A stretch of DNA of 10,314 bases, taken from contig SDNY01000128.1 of assembly GCA_004524535.1 (NCBI GenBank), positions 1-10,314 of the forward strand. The letters run 5' to 3'. The notes beneath the pieces are model-generated. The model had not been told where the DNA came from. It was given only the letters and a program-made list of their open reading frames with translations, and made no database searches. The stretch comes from Promethearchaeota archaeon. GTDB taxonomy: Archaea; Asgardarchaeota; Lokiarchaeia; Sigyniarchaeales; SOKP01. The position numbers and the translations under genes were made by a program. Position 1 is the stretch's first letter. The number at the start of each line of letters is the position of its first letter. Shown here one piece after another: positions 405 to 9,136 of this stretch.

Positions 405-962
405 ATGAGTTATAGGGGTAAGGTAATTCTTTTAGGTGATGCTGGCGTTGGAAAAACCAGTTTAATTGCTCGATATGTGGATAATATGTTTAGATCTGAA
501 TATATTCAAACCGTAGGTGCTAATTTTCTAATTAAAGAAGTTAATTTAAAAAGAATTGTCGAAAAGATGAAAAGAGAAAATCTTGAAATTCCCTCGGGAA
601 TGTCTTCTTTCACGCTTTTCTATTGGGATATTGGAGGTCAAAAAGACAAGTTATTCGTAACAGAATATTATTTTTTACAAGCTGTAGGTGCCATGGTCGC
701 GTTCAGTATAGCTAATAGAGAGAGTTTCAATAATTTGGATTTTTGGATATCAAAGATGAAAGAATTGAGCGGGGATGTTCCATTTATAATTATTGGAAAT
801 AAAACTGATTTACAAGATAAAAGAGTTGTTCATACTGAAGAGATAGAAAAAAAAGCAAAGGCCTACGGTGTACAATATTTTGAAACCTCTGCAAAGTTAA
901 ATGAAAGCGTCGATATAGCTTTTGAGGATCTTTCTATTCAAATATTAAATAATCTTAAATAA
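405..962 (+). CDS. Rab-like Ras-superfamily small GTPase (Asgard-type eukaryotic signature protein)
   Basis: All G motifs are present: G1 GDAGVGKT, G2 YIQTVGANF, G3 WDIGGQ, G4 GNKTD, G5 YFETSAK. There is no C-terminal Cys prenylation motif. Confidence 0.95.
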   Translation: MSYRGKVILLGDAGVGKTSLIARYVDNMFRSEYIQTVGANFLIKEVNLKRIVEKMKRENLEIPSGMSSFTLFYWDIGGQKDKLFVTEYYFLQAVGAMVAFSIANRESFNNLDFWISKMKELSGDVPFIIIGNKTDLQDKRVVHTEEIEKKAKAYGVQYFETSAKLNESVDIAFEDLSIQILNNLK

Positions 963-3056: not shown

Positions 3057-4343
3057 TTATTTAGGACTTTTAATAACCTTTTTCCCATTCATGTATTTTT
3101 GTAGAGCAGTTGGTATTCTTATTGAATGATCTTCATTTTGAAAGTTTTCTAAAATACAACAGATTGTACGTTCTGTTGCTATAGCAGTTGAATTTAATGT
3201 ATGCACTATTTGTTTTTCTTCTGACCCAACTTTGCCCATCCTGATTTTTAATTTTCGTGCTTGATAATCTAAACAATTACTGCAACTAACGAGTTCTCTA
3301 TATGTTTGAGATGCTGGAAACCAGGCTTCTAAATCGTATTTTTTTGCGGCATTATCATTCATTTCTCCAGAAGCAATATTAACGATTCTATATGGGAGTT
3401 CTAGTTTTTTATAAATCTCTTCAGCATTATGTATCAATTCCTCATGAAATTTCCATGATTCTTCAGGTTTGCAGAATACGTACTGCTCTACTTTTTCAAA
3501 TTGGTGAATTCGAAATATTCCTAAGGTATCTTTTCCATGAGACCCCGCTTCTCTCCTGAAGCACGAGGAGATACCAGCATATTTTATTGGCAATCTTTCA
3601 GGGGCGATAATTTCATCATAATGATAAGCGGCTAATGTTTGTTCTGACGTTGCTATCATGTATAAGTCTTCATCGTGAATTTTATATAATTGTTCCTCAA
3701 AATCTGCTAATTCGGCAGCAGCTTTAATCACTTCATGCTTTATAAAAAAAGGCGTCCACATTGGAGTATATCCTTTATTTTGAAGAAAATCTAAAGCGAA
3801 TTTCATTAGAGCTAAATTAAGTAAAACTAAATCTCCCTTTAAGTAATAAAATCGAGAAGCGACTACTTCAGAAGCTTTTTTAGTATCAGCACCATCTATA
3901 GTTTCTATTAATTTAACATGGTTTAAAGGTGAAAATTTGAAATTAGGCAATTCTCCAACAATCCGTACAATTTCATTCTCCTCTTCCGTCTCTCCGATAG
4001 GGACTGATTCATGAAGGATATTACCTACAACATAAAGATAATTATCTCTCTCTTCTTTATATTCTTTCTCAAGCTTTTCTAACTTATCTATTTCATCTTT
4101 TAATTCTTTCGTCGCTCTTATTGCCGCTTCAGATTCTTGTTCTTTTCCTTTTTTTTTAAGTTCTCCAATCTCTTTAGAAGTAATATTATGTTTCTGCTTT
4201 AATTCTTGAAGTTTAGTTATCACATTCCGCCATTTTTTATCATATTCTAATACCCTTTCTGCGTTAGAGGGATCCTTAAGTCTCCTCTTCTCAGATTCAA
4301 TAATCCTTTCTATATTCGTGCGAAATAATTCTATATCAAGCAA
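3057..4343 (-). CDS. serS: Seryl-tRNA synthetase (standard bacterial/eukaryotic-like type, class II)
   Basis: N-terminal MLDIELFR plus coiled-coil arm, ATSEQTL, motif 2 FRREAGSHGKDTLGIFRIHQFEKVEQ, ELVSCSNCLDYQAR, motif 3 HTLNSTAIATERTICCILENFQ. TTG start, with an in-frame TAG five codons upstream. Confidence 0.98.
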   Translation of the reverse strand: MLDIELFRTNIERIIESEKRRLKDPSNAERVLEYDKKWRNVITKLQELKQKHNITSKEIGELKKKGKEQESEAAIRATKELKDEIDKLEKLEKEYKEERDNYLYVVGNILHESVPIGETEEENEIVRIVGELPNFKFSPLNHVKLIETIDGADTKKASEVVASRFYYLKGDLVLLNLALMKFALDFLQNKGYTPMWTPFFIKHEVIKAAAELADFEEQLYKIHDEDLYMIATSEQTLAAYHYDEIIAPERLPIKYAGISSCFRREAGSHGKDTLGIFRIHQFEKVEQYVFCKPEESWKFHEELIHNAEEIYKKLELPYRIVNIASGEMNDNAAKKYDLEAWFPASQTYRELVSCSNCLDYQARKLKIRMGKVGSEEKQIVHTLNSTAIATERTICCILENFQNEDHSIRIPTALQKYMNGKKVIKSPK

Positions 4344-4452: not shown

Positions 4453-4770
4453 CTAATCGTGATGTATTCTCTCTGGGAGGGTTGAACGTAGATAAGTTGT
4501 CCGAATTTTTCGTTTATCATTTCCCACTGTATCGATGATCCTTATTATCTTTATTCTTGTTGCTTTCCCTTTTATTCCTAGCTCTCCCATGATCTCATTT
4601 GCATAATTTTCTTTCTCTTGATCCTTCAAGAACCTTTCTTTGACTTTCTCTTTATCTAAACCTACCCTCTCTATAATTTTTAGGACCTTATTCAATGTGG
4701 GTTTACCCTTTAACCCCTCTTCTACCATAAATTCATTTGCAAAGGCTTCTTTTTCTTCAATTTCGGACAT
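4453..4770 (-). CDS. Small hypothetical protein made of two tandem 46-aa repeats
   Basis: ATG start and TAG stop followed by a T-tract on the minus strand. Residues 6-49 align without gaps to residues 52-95 with about 22 identities. Confidence 0.85.
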   Translation of the reverse strand: MSEIEEKEAFANEFMVEEGLKGKPTLNKVLKIIERVGLDKEKVKERFLKDQEKENYANEIMGELGIKGKATRIKIIRIIDTVGNDKRKIRTTYLRSTLPERIHHD

Positions 4771-4986
4771 ACTAATGAAAATATTTCTTAAATAAAAAAT
4801 TTAATGAGATTTACAATGTTGCTTGCTACTTTGAATTTATGACTAATTTATTATATATAAAAATAAAAATGTAATTTTTAATCCAATTTTATTTATATCC
4901 TCGAAAAAAATTATGCAGAAAAATGAAAAATAAGAGTTATAAATCAATAAGATAAATTTTATTATCCAAGATAAATTTCATAAACC

Positions 4987-5022
4987 AAATAAATTTATAA
5001 ATTTGCTCAAGTTAAGAGCAAA
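4987..5022 (+). promoter_or_regulatory. Candidate hdrA promoter: TATA box with an adjacent inverted repeat
   Basis: TTTATAAA at 4994-5001, preceded by purine-rich AAATAAA and followed directly by TTTGCTC-N7-GAGCAAA (5002-5008 / 5016-5022). Confidence 0.4.
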
Positions 5023-5066
5023 ATTGAATAGTGAAAATAAAATATATTTAAGGTGGACTTTTAAAA

Positions 5067-5071
5067 AGGTG
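5067..5071 (+). promoter_or_regulatory. Shine-Dalgarno site of hdrA
   Basis: AGGTG 5 nt upstream of ATG 5077. Confidence 0.7.
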
Positions 5072-5076
5072 TTAAA

Positions 5077-7080
5077 ATGTCTGATAAGAATCAGACCAAA
5101 AAAATTGCTGTCTATATTTGTCGGTGAGGAGTAAATATTGGAAATTGGGTTGACTGTGATGCGTTAAGAGATTTTGCAGAGACTTTACCAAACGTCGTTG
5201 TTTCTAAGATAAATAAATTCACATGTAGTGATCCTGGACAACAAGTCATAAAAAATGATATTTTAGAATTAGACATAAATAGAGTCGTTGTAGCGGCATG
5301 AACACCAAAGATTCACGAACCTACATATAGATCGGTCTTGATGGAAGCAGGATTAAGTCCTTATTACTTTGAAATGGTTAATATGCGAGAACACTGTTCT
5401 TTTGTTCATCAAGATGATAAACAAAAGGCAACAGAAAAAGCTAAAAGGCTAATTCTTGCAGGAGTTAATCGTGCAAGAGAATTAGAAGATGTTCCGCTCA
5501 AAGAAATACCCGTAACCAAAGCTGCCTTAGTTATTGGTGCGGGGATCGCTGGAATGAATTCTGCCTTAGATCTTGCGAATGGAGGAATTCCAGTTTATCT
5601 TGTTGAAAAAGAAGCCACAATTGGAGGGAAAATGGCACAATTGGATAGAGTTTATCCAACTGATGATTGTGGAATATGAGTTCTCGCGCCCATAATGGTG
5701 AATGCTGCTAAACATCCAAATATTACCCTTCTAACTTATAGCGATATCATAGAATTTAATGGAATTCCTGGGGAATATCATGTCAAAATAAGAAAAAATC
5801 CTCGTTATGTAGATGAGAAAAAATGTACTGGCTGTGGATTATGCACTACTAAATGCCCAGTTAAAGTACCAAGTGAATTTGATCGAGGTATCGGTGAACG
5901 AGGAGCAATTTATATTCCATTTCCACAAGCTGTTCCAATACTTGCTGTAATTGATAAGGATGTATGTATCGATTGCAAAACTTGTGAACGAGTCTGCCCT
6001 GCAGAAGCTATTAAGTTCGATCAAGAACCTGAGATAATCGATATAACTGTAGGTGCCGTGATTGTTGCGACAGGGTATGATGAATATCCAATTATGGAAA
6101 CGAATGAATATAATTATGGTATTTTTCCAGATGTTATCACTCAAATAGAACTGGAGAGAATGTTGAGTCCCGTAGGTCCGACTGGAGGTCATATTTATAG
6201 AATTTCAACAGGAGAAACTCCACAAAAGATCGTAGTAATTCAGTGTGTAGGGTCGAGATCTTTAAAAGGGAATCCCTACTGTTCTGCTGTGTGTTGTAAT
6301 GTAGCCCTCAAAAATGCTCAATTATTAATTCAAGAATATCCTGGAATAGACATCACGCTTTTTTATATTGACATTAGAACGACGGACAAAGCCAACGAAG
6401 AATATTATAGAAAAATTAGAGATACGGGTCTCAAACTAATTCGTGGTAAGGTTGGAGAGATTACTGAGGATCCCGAAACTAAAAAACTAAAAGTTAGAGC
6501 GTATTCATCATTATTGGATGAAATTGTCAATATTGAGGCTGATTTAGTAGTACTATCAACTGGAATGATACCCTCAAAAGGTACAGAAGAAATGGTTGAA
6601 GTAATGGGACTCAATGTGGGTCCTAATGGATTTCTATCAGAAGTTCATGGATGTTTATTTCCGCAGGAGACTAAAAATTTAGGGATATACATCTGTGGAT
6701 GTGCTGCTGGTCCAAAAAACATTCCATATTCCGTATCTACAGCTTTAGCTGCATCTAGTAAAGCGTTATCCCTTCTTTCAAGTGATACTATTAAACAAGA
6801 ATTAATTGTTGCTGAAGTAAATAAAGAACTTTGCGCGGGTTGTCATAGATGTGAAAAATTATGTGAATATCGAGCAATCACAGTGGGTGACGATGAAATT
6901 GCTGTTGTGGATGATTTAAAATGTAAGGGTTGTGGTGTGTGTGTTACATCTTGTCCAGCGAGGGCAATTGATCTAAAATATTACAGAGATATACAATTTG
7001 AAGAAGCAATCAAAGGAATCGGTGGCGTAGAGATTCCAATAGAATTTATTGAAGAAACAGAAGAAGTTGTGGATAATTAA
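5077..7080 (+). CDS. hdrA: Heterodisulfide reductase subunit A (FAD/Fe-S), selenoprotein with 3 UGA-Sec codons, 667 aa
   Basis: One continuous frame from ATG 5077: MSDKNQTKKIAVYICR-U17(5125-5127)-GVNIG...FTCSDPGQ...RVVVAA-U75(5299-5301)-TPKIHEPTYR...VIGAGIAG (FAD)...YPTDDCGI-U201(5677-5679)-VLAPIM. It continues with a 2x[4Fe-4S] insert (CTGCGLCTTKCP, CIDCKTCERVCP), ELERM, QCVGSR...YCSAVCCNVALK and a C-terminal 2x[4Fe-4S] domain (CAGCHRCEKLC, CKGCGVCVTSCP). This joins track ORFs 5338..5679 and 5695..7080, which share a frame. Confidence 0.95.
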
Positions 7081-7089
7081 ACAAAATAA

Positions 7090-7095
7090 AGGTGA
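7090..7095 (+). promoter_or_regulatory. Shine-Dalgarno site of mvhD
   Basis: AGGTGA ending 6 nt before ATG 7102. Confidence 0.75.
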
Positions 7096-7101
7096 AAAAT
7101 T

Positions 7102-7530
7102 ATGAGTGAAAGTCTAAAATCTGAAAAAAGAAGAATTATTGCCTTTGGCTGTGATAAATGAGGATATCCTGTCGCTGATCTAACGGGCACTGCCCGAAAA
7201 AGCTATTCTGCAAATTTTCATTTATTACGTGTCAGATGTACAAGTAGAATCGGATTACATTTGATAATGAAATGCTTCCTAAATGGAGCAGATGGCGTTG
7301 CGATAATTTCATGACATGAAGGTGAATGCGATTACGGTAGAGGTAATATGAATACATATGAGCATGTATTGTTCCTAAAAAAACTATTTGATCGCATTGG
7401 AATTTCTGAAGATAGAATCCAACAATATTTCTGTTCTGCTGCTGAAGTTGAAAATTTTCTCAACTCAGTAGAAGATATCACTAAAAAAGTGGAAAAATTA
7501 CCTCCTCTGCCAAGATTTAATCCGAAATAG
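7102..7530 (+). CDS. mvhD: MvhD/VhuD/FlpD-family [2Fe-2S] subunit, selenoprotein with 2 UGA-Sec codons, 142 aa
   Basis: MSESLKSEKRRIIAFGCDK-U20(7159-7161)-GYPVADLTGTARKSYSANFHLLRVRCTSRIGLHLIMKCFLNGADGVAIIS-U71(7312-7314)-HEGECDYGRGNMNTYEHVLFLKKLFDRIGISEDRIQQYFCSAAE...LPPLP. This matches MvhD motifs FxCxxCxYxxAD.xG, RVxC, GADGV...CHxGxCxY..GN and GI..xR....SAAE. The track shows only the last 60 aa (7348..7530). Confidence 0.95.
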
Positions 7531-7569
7531 AATGATCTTTTCAAAAAAATTATAGTTGAAAAGGAACTA
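7528..7569 (+). promoter_or_regulatory. Candidate SECIS element (eukaryote/Lokiarchaeia-like kink-turn hairpin)
   Basis: AUGA at 7532-7535. Perfect 8-bp stem CUUUUCAA (7537-7544) / UUGAAAAG (7556-7563). The apical loop begins AAAAA (7545-7549). GAA (7564-7566) lies opposite the AUGA. Lower helix UAG (7528-7530) / CUA (7567-7569), with a further possible UCCGAAA (7521-7527) / UUUCGGA (7585-7591) pairing. It lies immediately 3' of two genes with in-frame UGA. Confidence 0.75.
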
Positions 7570-7633
7570 ACTCATTGCTTGGGTTTTCGGAAATAATAAT
7601 AATTTTTAATAAAAATAATAGGAATTTAATGAA

Positions 7634-9136
7634 ATGTGTCCAGAAGAAGTTCAGGTTTCATGGGAGTTTCTGAAAACAGTATCAGATACCTTAGATTCAT
7701 ATAGAGTCCGTGCATTAATCGATGCGAAAAAGGACATTTTAGAAGCAGGGATTTATACAGAATCCCAATATTATGACATTTTATTTAAAATGTTTGATGA
7801 TGAGAGATTAAAATACACCCTCTATTCATTCTTAAAGAATAATAGTGTTAACAATTTTGAAAGTATAAAGCAATTCGCTCAAAAAAATTCAATTGAAATC
7901 TATAAAGCATATAGTTTATTGGAATTATTAAAGAACGAACAACTCATTATAATAGAAGAGCATTATGATAAAATAGAAGGAGATGATGATTCACCTCCAA
8001 GATCGATTTTCAAGGATCTTGATATAAATATTCCTGAAATTGAATCAATAGATTCTATCAAATCAGTTTATGAACCTGTTAGTACGATATTCGAATCTGA
8101 AGTGTGTTCTGGATGTGGCATATGCGCAGGTATCTGTCCGGTGAATTGCATTGAAATAAATAATGGTTTCGGAAAGATAGATGAAGACAAATGTATAAGA
8201 TGTGGACTATGTTATTTCGTATGTCCAAGATCCTATCTTCCTACAAAAATTCTCCCTATGAAATTAGGAGAAATACCAGAGATTAAAGAATATGGCAATA
8301 TTGGATATTTTAAGGAAGCATATTCAGCTAAGACAAAAGTAAAAGAAATATCAGAAGTATGTCAAGATGGTGGCATCTCCAGTACTTGCTTACATTATTT
8401 ATTTGATAAAAATGAAATTGATGGTGCACTAGGTGCAAAGATGAGCAGTGATCCTTGGAGACCAGAGCCAGTATTATTAAAAAACAAAGAAGATATCATA
8501 TCTGCTGCTGGAACGAAATATGTGAATAATCCAAACTTACAATTACTAAATCAATTGAATGGCGGATTAAAGGGAATCGCAGTTGTAGGAGTTCCCTGCA
8601 TGATGCAAGCACTCTTAAAATCTCATATTTATGATATTGGAATACCTTCTCTCCAAAAAGTAAAGTATCGTATTGGTATTTTCTGTATGGAATCGTTTCC
8701 CTATGAAGACGGATTTTTGAAAATCTTAGAGAAATTAAATGTCAGTGTTGATGATGTAAAAAAAACTGATATTAATAAAGGTAAATTTATTGTGTATACA
8801 AAATCTGGGGATGAGCTTAATATACCCATCAAAGAGATCAGTAATTTAGCAAGAGAAGATTGCGAAGTGTGTTTTGATTTGTCATCTGAATCGGCAGATA
8901 TATCCATAGGTTCGATTGGATCTCCTTCTGGATGGAATACCGTAATTATAAGAACAGAAAAGGGAAAAGAATTGTACGATGAATTACTTAAAAATGGTCT
9001 AATTGAATCAAAACCTATAAAAGACGTTAAACCTGGATTACCTATGCTACAAAAAATTGCTGGTTTTAAAAGAAATGGGTGTAAAAAGCATATAAGTGCT
9101 AAAAAAGAAAAAAATAAACGATATCCTCAATACTAA
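7634..9136 (+). CDS. F420 hydrogenase/dehydrogenase beta-subunit family protein (FrhB/FdhB/FpoF-like) with a 2x[4Fe-4S] ferredoxin domain and an about 150-aa N-terminal extension
   Basis: Ferredoxin motifs CSGCGICAGICP and CIRCGLCYFVCP, followed by FrhB motifs CQDGGISST, AAGTKY, VGVPC, IGIFCMESF and CEVCFDLSSESADISIGSIGSPSGWNTVIIRTEKG. Confidence 0.92.
   Translation: MCPEEVQVSWEFLKTVSDTLDSYRVRALIDAKKDILEAGIYTESQYYDILFKMFDDERLKYTLYSFLKNNSVNNFESIKQFAQKNSIEIYKAYSLLELLKNEQLIIIEEHYDKIEGDDDSPPRSIFKDLDINIPEIESIDSIKSVYEPVSTIFESEVCSGCGICAGICPVNCIEINNGFGKIDEDKCIRCGLCYFVCPRSYLPTKILPMKLGEIPEIKEYGNIGYFKEAYSAKTKVKEISEVCQDGGISSTCLHYLFDKNEIDGALGAKMSSDPWRPEPVLLKNKEDIISAAGTKYVNNPNLQLLNQLNGGLKGIAVVGVPCMMQALLKSHIYDIGIPSLQKVKYRIGIFCMESFPYEDGFLKILEKLNVSVDDVKKTDINKGKFIVYTKSGDELNIPIKEISNLAREDCEVCFDLSSESADISIGSIGSPSGWNTVIIRTEKGKELYDELLKNGLIESKPIKDVKPGLPMLQKIAGFKRNGCKKHISAKKEKNKRYPQY

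Follow-up and report, generated by a model that had tools for sequence, protein, structure and literature searches.

How could one selenocysteine insertion sequence (SECIS) element serve UGA codons in two consecutive genes, the farthest of them 2.4 kb upstream? The question is raised by a contig of a Promethearchaeota archaeon (GenBank assembly GCA_004524535.1, contig SDNY01000128.1; C83 in our numbering), which we analyzed as a whole (10,314 bp; hereafter, the window) and which belongs to a 3.66-Mb genome of 198 contigs with 30% G+C. In this window, hdrA, encoding heterodisulfide reductase subunit A, and mvhD (also vhuD or frhD), encoding a hydrogenase delta subunit, together carry five in-frame UGA codons, and a single SECIS element of the lokiSECIS type lies directly past mvhD. 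We consider it likely that the two genes form a selenoprotein operon in which all five UGAs are read as selenocysteine (Sec) via this one shared element. The arrangement was already published in 2016 and 2024, and its description in the original prediction, which was made from the sequence letters of the window, is a correct rediscovery.

Five in-frame UGA codons in hdrA and mvhD

Translated with TGA as U, hdrA (5077..7080, plus strand) encodes 667 amino acids, ends in TAA (7078-7080), and contains in-frame TGA codons at 5125-5127 (U17), 5299-5301 (U75), and 5677-5679 (U201). The mvhD gene (7102..7530, plus strand) encodes 142 amino acids, ends in TAG (7528-7530), and contains in-frame TGA codons at 7159-7161 (U20) and 7312-7314 (U71). 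Between the two genes lie only 21 nt (7081..7101, plus strand), in which the sequence and a junction alignment of 19 loci reveal a Shine-Dalgarno-like GGUG (7091-7094). The original prediction had reported this gap with its Shine-Dalgarno sequence, as well as five in-frame UGAs across two cistrons; its coordinates and counts are right.

HdrA carries the Pfam Fer4 and FAD/NAD domains and aligns with PDB chain 9sfi_A over residues 8-648 of 667 (phmmer, E 2.2e-221). In this alignment, U17 and U75 face Cys residues, while U201 faces the X (Sec) of the solved chain. MvhD matches the Pfam family FlpD (PF02662, E 1.6e-36) with residues 12-133, covering profile positions 1-122 of 123, and in its alignment with PDB chain 5odc_D (E 4.7e-27) both U20 and U71 fall on Cys. 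A global reassignment of TGA was ruled out. Although none of the 10 open reading frames (ORFs) of the window ends in TGA, this codon is the stop of 219 of 1775 ORFs of at least 250 codons genome-wide, and the median extension obtained by reading through it, 8 codons, is the same as for TAG. TGA therefore serves as an ordinary stop here, the five in-frame TGAs being exceptions, and all five almost certainly encode selenocysteine.

One lokiSECIS directly past mvhD

The core of the lokiSECIS (7532..7566, plus strand) belongs to the AUGA_AA variant. It was scored with a covariance model, R1, built from 16 other lokiSECIS elements (collected from the same genome by pattern and from related loci) with the window copy excluded, and it matches this model at 67.1 bits (E 4.2e-13). 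AUGA occupies 7532-7535 and is followed by helix II, which pairs 7537-7544 with 7556-7563 through eight Watson-Crick pairs and becomes a 9-bp stem with the closing U-G pair 7536/7564. The apical loop comprises 11 nt (7545-7555, AAAAAUUAUAG), and the 3' side of the stem continues with G7564 and then AA (7565-7566). The AUGA begins one nt past the mvhD stop; it is separated by 2407 nt from the first UGA and by 220 nt from the final one, in line with the distances of about 2400 and 220 nt given originally.

These features agree with the published description of lokiSECIS elements: an AUGA 5' of the stem, a 9-bp stem, an 11-nt loop whose first five bases are A and whose last base is a G, usually preceded by A, and a position directly past the coding sequence of a selenoprotein. 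In an alignment of the 16 other elements, made without the window copy, the AUGA and these loop columns are invariant, and the N-AA-C arrangement 3' of the stem is found in 11 of 16 related loci. The stem itself varies, as all eight of its pairs are changed on both sides among the 16 elements, with a covariation score of 0.99 versus 0.27 in shuffles. The elements were chosen by a pattern that requires pairing, so it is this variety of the stem, and not the percentage of paired positions, that constitutes independent evidence.

The conserved fold is larger than the core. The element had been drawn to end at 7569, which is too short: the minimum free energy (MFE) fold of 7516-7598 and a comparison of 17 sequences define a three-helix junction at 7521..7591 on the plus strand. 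Helix I, the lower helix, pairs UCCGAAA (7521-7527) with UUUCGGA (7585-7591), and its 5' strand is formed by the last codons of mvhD. Helix II, the SECIS arm, stands in the middle, and helix III is a small hairpin on the 3' side (7570-7574/7580-7584), between the core and helix I. The MFE fold yields exactly these three helices (z -2.18; 6 of 200 shuffles fold as well), and the 17 sequences pair in 93.4% of cells versus 81.9% in shuffles. In the relatives, five of the seven pairs of helix I have both sides changed, while helix III is conserved without double changes; RNAalifold alone recovered only helix II and two pairs of helix III. A full-text search found no published account of a three-way junction in an Asgard SECIS. 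The accessible portions of the main texts of PMC4989117 and PMC11227280 mention a lower stem and an internal loop, but neither a hairpin on the 3' side nor the start-codon hairpin that is described below.

The Logan contigs of the likely source run break at the SECIS (4771-7557 and 7532-9136), and the depth rises there. A break at 7532-7557 is as expected if near-identical copies of the SECIS in the community confuse the assembly graph.

The layout is conserved in related loci

The nearest public relatives of this hdrA are contigs of metagenome-assembled genomes (MAGs) from Promethearchaeota (one from Hodarchaeota), with 71-86% amino acid identity; these are Loki-type Asgard archaea. Our related-locus search yielded 26 loci, 18 of which contain close relatives of hdrA; two of these (L011 and L012) end before the point past mvhD. 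Run on 20 sources, R1 gave one strong match (41.5-67.7 bits) directly past mvhD in 18, namely, all 16 close relatives reaching that far and two paralogous pairs of the same genome (C27, which is L029, and C96, which is L030). Five of the 18 (L004, L008, L010, L017, and L018; 46-57 bits) had not been used in building R1. The comparison of SECIS number and position in orthologous operons, proposed along with the original prediction, thus has a uniform outcome: one strong match, past mvhD, in every locus that extends to this point.

The geometry of the junction is equally constant. The SECIS starts 0-1 nt past the mvhD stop in 17 of 19 loci and 0-13 nt past it overall; in L002, the UGA of the AUGA is itself the stop codon of mvhD. 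The gap between hdrA and mvhD measures 9-21 nt in 14 of the 19 loci, the other five being longer only through ATG-only start calling, and hdrA stops with TAA or TAG, never with TGA, in all 19. Four of the five Sec positions are shared. In HdrA, U17 is encoded by TGA in 16/16 and U201 in 17/17 of the relatives that cover the respective column; in MvhD, U20 is encoded by TGA in 15/15 sequences and U71 in 18/19. The 667-codon frame of hdrA is kept across 14 orthologues, all of which have TGA at the same two Cys columns.

A second SECIS-like match was seen in one relative, L009, over the start of mvhD (L009:4499-4549; 22.1 bits, E 0.034; AUGA, a 13-nt A-rich loop, and GA). It was set aside as nonconserved: it is not kept in L007, L008, L010, or L018 and is probably due to chance.

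Genome-wide, R1 gave nine matches with E<1e-3. Each of the genome's three Sec-type hdrA-mvhD pairs (C83, C27, and C96) is followed by one of them, and the others belong to selD and further loci. The third Sec-type hdrA appears to be split over contig ends, its 5' part lying at C145:21142-22503 and its 3' part, with mvhD and the SECIS, at C96:1-717; the gene itself is probably intact and the split a break in the assembly.

Past the SECIS, an ORF with the same conserved N-terminal sequence as the frhB/fdhB-like gene of the window starts 51-90 nt behind the core in 17/17 loci. In the window, this gene (7634..9136, plus strand; Pfam FrhB_FdhB_C, FrhB_FdhB_N, and Fer4) encodes an iron-sulfur flavoprotein and begins 67 nt past the core and 41 nt past the 3' end of helix I (7591). 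The spacer between the SECIS and the frhB/fdhB-like gene showed no conserved U-tract or ribosome-binding site. Because this ORF follows in all 17 loci, the SECIS may be intercistronic and not mark the end of the transcript.

Search for further recoding signals

We looked in several ways for a second signal. With filters off, on both strands of the whole window, R1, which detects lokiSECIS-like elements only, gave 26 matches at E<=10. One of them is the element past mvhD (7526-7574, plus strand), and the other 25 reach at most 12.0 bits (E>=0.48), with no full-length match above 9 bits within 4771-7525. An Rfam scan of the window at E<=10 returned no SECIS family; its four matches are all at chance level, with sR17 (19 bits) scoring highest. 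These results bear out the report of only one SECIS-like hairpin, past mvhD, and the covariance scan that had been suggested as its test returned no further copy.

Local hairpins of the bacterial type were also rejected, as the five 66-nt segments taken from each UGA fold no better than shuffles (z -0.37 to +0.82). Synonymous sites past the three hdrA UGAs are not conserved above the gene average (15 orthologues; z -1.3 to +0.7). Following the pairing between SECIS flank and ORF proposed for Methanococcus fdhA1, which is one concrete looping model, we computed mean RNAduplex energies across 15 orthologues and found no conserved complementarity between the SECIS and the ORF that stood out among about 680 columns; the best columns (z -2.5 to -1.9) are scattered and do not lie beside UGAs, and the positions past the UGAs range from z -1.6 to +2.0. 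Similarly, the accessible text of Mariotti et al. (PMC4989117) reports that RNAz found nothing else in the coding sequence ±200 nt. In summary, neither a second lokiSECIS, nor a bacterial-type local hairpin, nor a conserved hidden element near the UGAs is detectable by these methods.

A conserved hairpin on the hdrA start codon

Among the codons of hdrA, the first ones are under the strongest synonymous constraint (0.91 versus a gene mean of 0.55, z ~5; 15 orthologues), and at this place a hairpin (5079..5096, plus strand) pairs GUCUGAU (5079-5085) with AUCAGAC (5090-5096) around an AAGA loop (MFE -8.0 kcal/mol). The first paired base is the G of the hdrA AUG. In 15/15 orthologues, GUCUG...CAGAC is invariant, its first G being that of an (A/U/G)UG start, and forms 5-7 bp around a spacer of variable length (5-8 nt). 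The hairpin also makes use of codons that are rare in this genome, CAG accounting for 19% of Gln codons and ACC for 12% of Thr codons. It has neither the AUGA/GA core nor the A-rich loop of a SECIS. At the other end of the gene, synonymous conservation rises slightly at codons 651-655 (z ~2.1).

The distribution of the hairpin is narrow. Five such sites occur in the genome, about what a rough estimate expects by chance, yet two of them coincide with the start codon of a Sec-type hdrA (in C83 and in C27, whose HdrA proteins are 47% identical). The hairpin is missing from the third Sec-type hdrA of the genome (C145), from two of six nearer and 15 of 16 more distant Sec-type genes sampled, and from Cys-type hdrA genes (11/11 sampled and 4/4 copies in the same genome). 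We therefore rejected it as a general feature of Sec-type hdrA; it is restricted to one lineage. Our literature search found no published account of a hairpin at the start codon of a selenocysteine-encoding hdrA.

The hairpin may tune initiation. Any connection with Sec decoding is hypothetical. A palindromic site for a transcription factor is a less likely explanation, as the arms are fixed while the spacer length varies. The original prediction pointed to a timing problem: if transcription and translation are coupled, a ribosome would reach UGA17 before the SECIS exists. This is a fair question, and it applies to every archaeal SECIS in a 3' untranslated region (UTR). A full-text search for literature on archaeal SECIS elements with coupled transcription retrieved only an unrelated use of the phrase. 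The consequences drawn from the timing problem, namely delayed or uncoupled translation, mRNA looping, or a selenium checkpoint at codon 17, gained no support from our analyses. We speculate that the hairpin could act as an initiation gate, holding back or thinning ribosomes until transcription and loading of the SECIS, 2.4 kb downstream, are complete, although we regard this as unlikely. If true, the gate would solve the timing problem in an archaeal way, with a loose parallel in the initiation stem-loop of vertebrate SELENOP, and the published proposal of one SECIS acting across cistrons would gain a second, 5' component.

How one element could serve both genes

In our model, hdrA and mvhD of this Loki-type Asgard archaeon of the Promethearchaeota are most likely transcribed together. 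The five in-frame UGAs would be read by Sec-tRNA(Sec) in complex with the Sec elongation factor of the archaeal/eukaryotic type, which would be recruited by the single eukaryote-like lokiSECIS with its AUGA core, 8-9-bp helix, A-rich 11-nt loop, and 3' AA. The element would span 0.2 to 2.4 kb and reach over a stop-start junction. Such a range would imply distance-independent action, like that of eukaryotic and Methanococcus 3'-UTR SECIS elements and unlike that of position-locked bacterial ones. The proposal of a single 3' element for a polycistronic mRNA is partly supported: it agrees with all our computational tests, which returned no second lokiSECIS, no unusual folding and no synonymous excess past the UGAs, and the same layout in every relative that can be judged; the shared transcript is a part that we infer, as are Sec insertion and action in cis on hdrA.

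Several observations weigh against this interpretation. U75 is encoded by TGA in this contig alone, and the 16 other sequences that cover the column all have Cys; this position, known from a single assembly and the run that is its likely source, may reflect either a recent Cys-to-Sec change or an assembly feature. According to the accessible text of Peiter et al. (PMC11881835), a lokiarchaeal SECIS was not functional in a Methanococcus maripaludis reporter. No tRNA(Sec) was found in the 198-contig assembly with RF01852 or ARAGORN. Since R1 sees only lokiSECIS-like shapes, a recoding signal of a different type within hdrA could have escaped it. Finally, public RNA contigs (Logan contigs of one metatranscriptome run) cover only 5125-5378, 5920-6096, 6351-6563, and 7105-7304; none of those listed crosses 7081-7101 or enters the SECIS, and DNA carry-over in the library is possible, so that these short pieces argue neither for co-transcription nor for its absence.

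Could hdrA possess a recoding signal of another kind, in its 5' UTR or coding sequence, leaving the 3' SECIS to serve mvhD only? The start hairpin would be a candidate: it is a strongly conserved RNA-level element, R1 and Rfam find known shapes only, and a 5'-UTR SECIS is functional in Methanococcus, as described in the part of PMC11881835 available to us. However, this hairpin lacks a SECIS core and is missing from many Sec-type hdrA genes, and past the UGAs there is neither a synonymous excess nor unusual folding, in agreement with the negative RNAz result of PMC4989117 for the coding sequence and its 200-nt flanks. We find a separate signal very unlikely. Still less probable, in our view, is that the SECIS serves hdrA in trans or from separate transcripts by raising the local supply of loaded Sec elongation factor. 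The RNA contigs do not bridge the gene junction, and the slight synonymous rise at codons 651-655 could mark an internal signal for mvhD. Yet the gap is as short as 21 nt here and stays within 9-21 nt in most loci, and no conserved complementarity links the SECIS region to sites past the UGAs. Moreover, hdrA consistently avoids TGA as its stop (19/19), a selection that would be expected were the SECIS acting in cis on the ribosomes translating hdrA, an argument that appears in the accessible text of PMC4989117.

Another conceivable reading is that the hdrA UGAs do not specify Sec at all, either terminating translation, in a pseudogene or a selenium-gated stub, or being read through as Cys or Trp. 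This would fit with the failure to find tRNA(Sec) in the assembly and with the position of UGA17, only 48 nt into the gene. Against it stands an intact full-length frame with 71-86% identity across 14 orthologues, which retain TGA at the same two Cys columns; in methanogen HdrA, moreover, Sec is proven at the site of U201 (X in PDB 9sfi_A), and TGA is not reassigned genome-wide. We give this explanation the least credence. With respect to the tRNA, the top RF01852 candidates are ordinary tRNA-Arg(UCU) and tRNA-Ser(UGA), and with just 12 tRNAs listed for the 3.66-Mb assembly ARAGORN lacks sensitivity in this case, so that the absence of tRNA(Sec) does not follow; many tRNAs, perhaps intron-bearing ones, escape it. 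Other components of the Sec machinery are present in the genome: SepSecS (390 bits, contig C188), a PSTK-like gene (144 bits, contig C148, under the strict cut-off), and, on C64, a selD gene that contains Sec and has a lokiSECIS of its own.

Comparison with published systems

The shared-SECIS operon that we favor closely resembles the Asgard HdrA-VhuD loci already described. In the accessible text of Mariotti et al. 2016 (PMC4989117), tandem HdrA-VhuD genes with very short gaps, a multi-Sec HdrA that never ends in UGA, and one lokiSECIS only past VhuD led to the proposal of a polycistronic mRNA with up to six UGAs over ~2 kb. Huang et al. 2024 (PMC11227280), as far as the available text goes, extended the arrangement to hundreds of Asgard MAGs and listed the AUGA_AA core variant for hdrA/frhD of Lokiarchaeia (GA, or AA in some vhuU and hdrA/frhD). 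Relative to what these portions of the two papers describe, our locus shares the gene order, the short gap, the UAA/UAG stop of hdrA, the single SECIS past vhuD, several Sec residues in HdrA including the canonical one at ~200, two Sec residues in VhuD, the 9-bp stem, and the 11-nt loop of the form AAAAA...AG. The third HdrA Sec of this copy, at codon 75, is lacking in its 16 nearest relatives; nothing essential differs from the published arrangement.

More distant systems share some of these properties. The hdrA-vhuD genes of Methanococcales and Methanopyrus encode orthologous proteins with Sec at HdrA ~200 and at two VhuD sites, and their SECIS likewise lies outside the coding sequence and acts at a distance. 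They differ, according to the consulted portion of PMC4989117, in having one Sec in HdrA and a SECIS of the GAA_A, kink-turn-like type. Reporter tests of this distance covered 520-679 nt (PMC9622424), and Peiter et al. reported that no strict limit of distance applies to SECIS elements in archaea. Vertebrate SELENOP mRNA (PMC5727441) is similar in that several UGAs are served from the 3' end over kilobases and in that a conserved stem-loop is present at the start of the coding sequence, but this eukaryotic mRNA is monocistronic, with two SECIS elements in its 3' UTR. The SELENOP initiation stem-loop enhanced initiation in vitro and left UGA redefinition unchanged (PMC5727441).

At the sequence level, our locus contributes only another example of a known arrangement, with small additions: the Sec site at HdrA codon 75, the three-helix shape of the element, the negative tests for a second signal, and the start-codon hairpin as a possible partner. 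If demonstrated experimentally, one SECIS serving up to five or six UGAs across more than 2 kb and two cistrons would exceed every known recoding arrangement in range and be the sole polycistronic one. It would be found in the lineage closest to eukaryotes and would bear on the origin of the eukaryotic SECIS system.

Genomic context

Upstream of the operon and divergent from it lies a gene for seryl-tRNA synthetase (3057-4343, minus strand), an enzyme that also charges tRNA(Sec); its position beside a selenoprotein operon may be a coincidence. A 105-amino-acid ORF of no known family (4453-4770) separates the two. The window further contains a CofC-like gene on the minus strand, with seryl-tRNA synthetase, and the genes for ribosomal proteins S13 and S4 on the plus strand, after the frhB/fdhB-like gene. 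Ras-family small GTPases are typical "eukaryotic signature" genes of Asgard archaea, and the presence of one in the window (405-962; PF00071, E 5e-41) supports the taxonomic placement. Three DNA runs, one of which may be the source sample, show the presence of this locus and related ones in sediment metagenomes.

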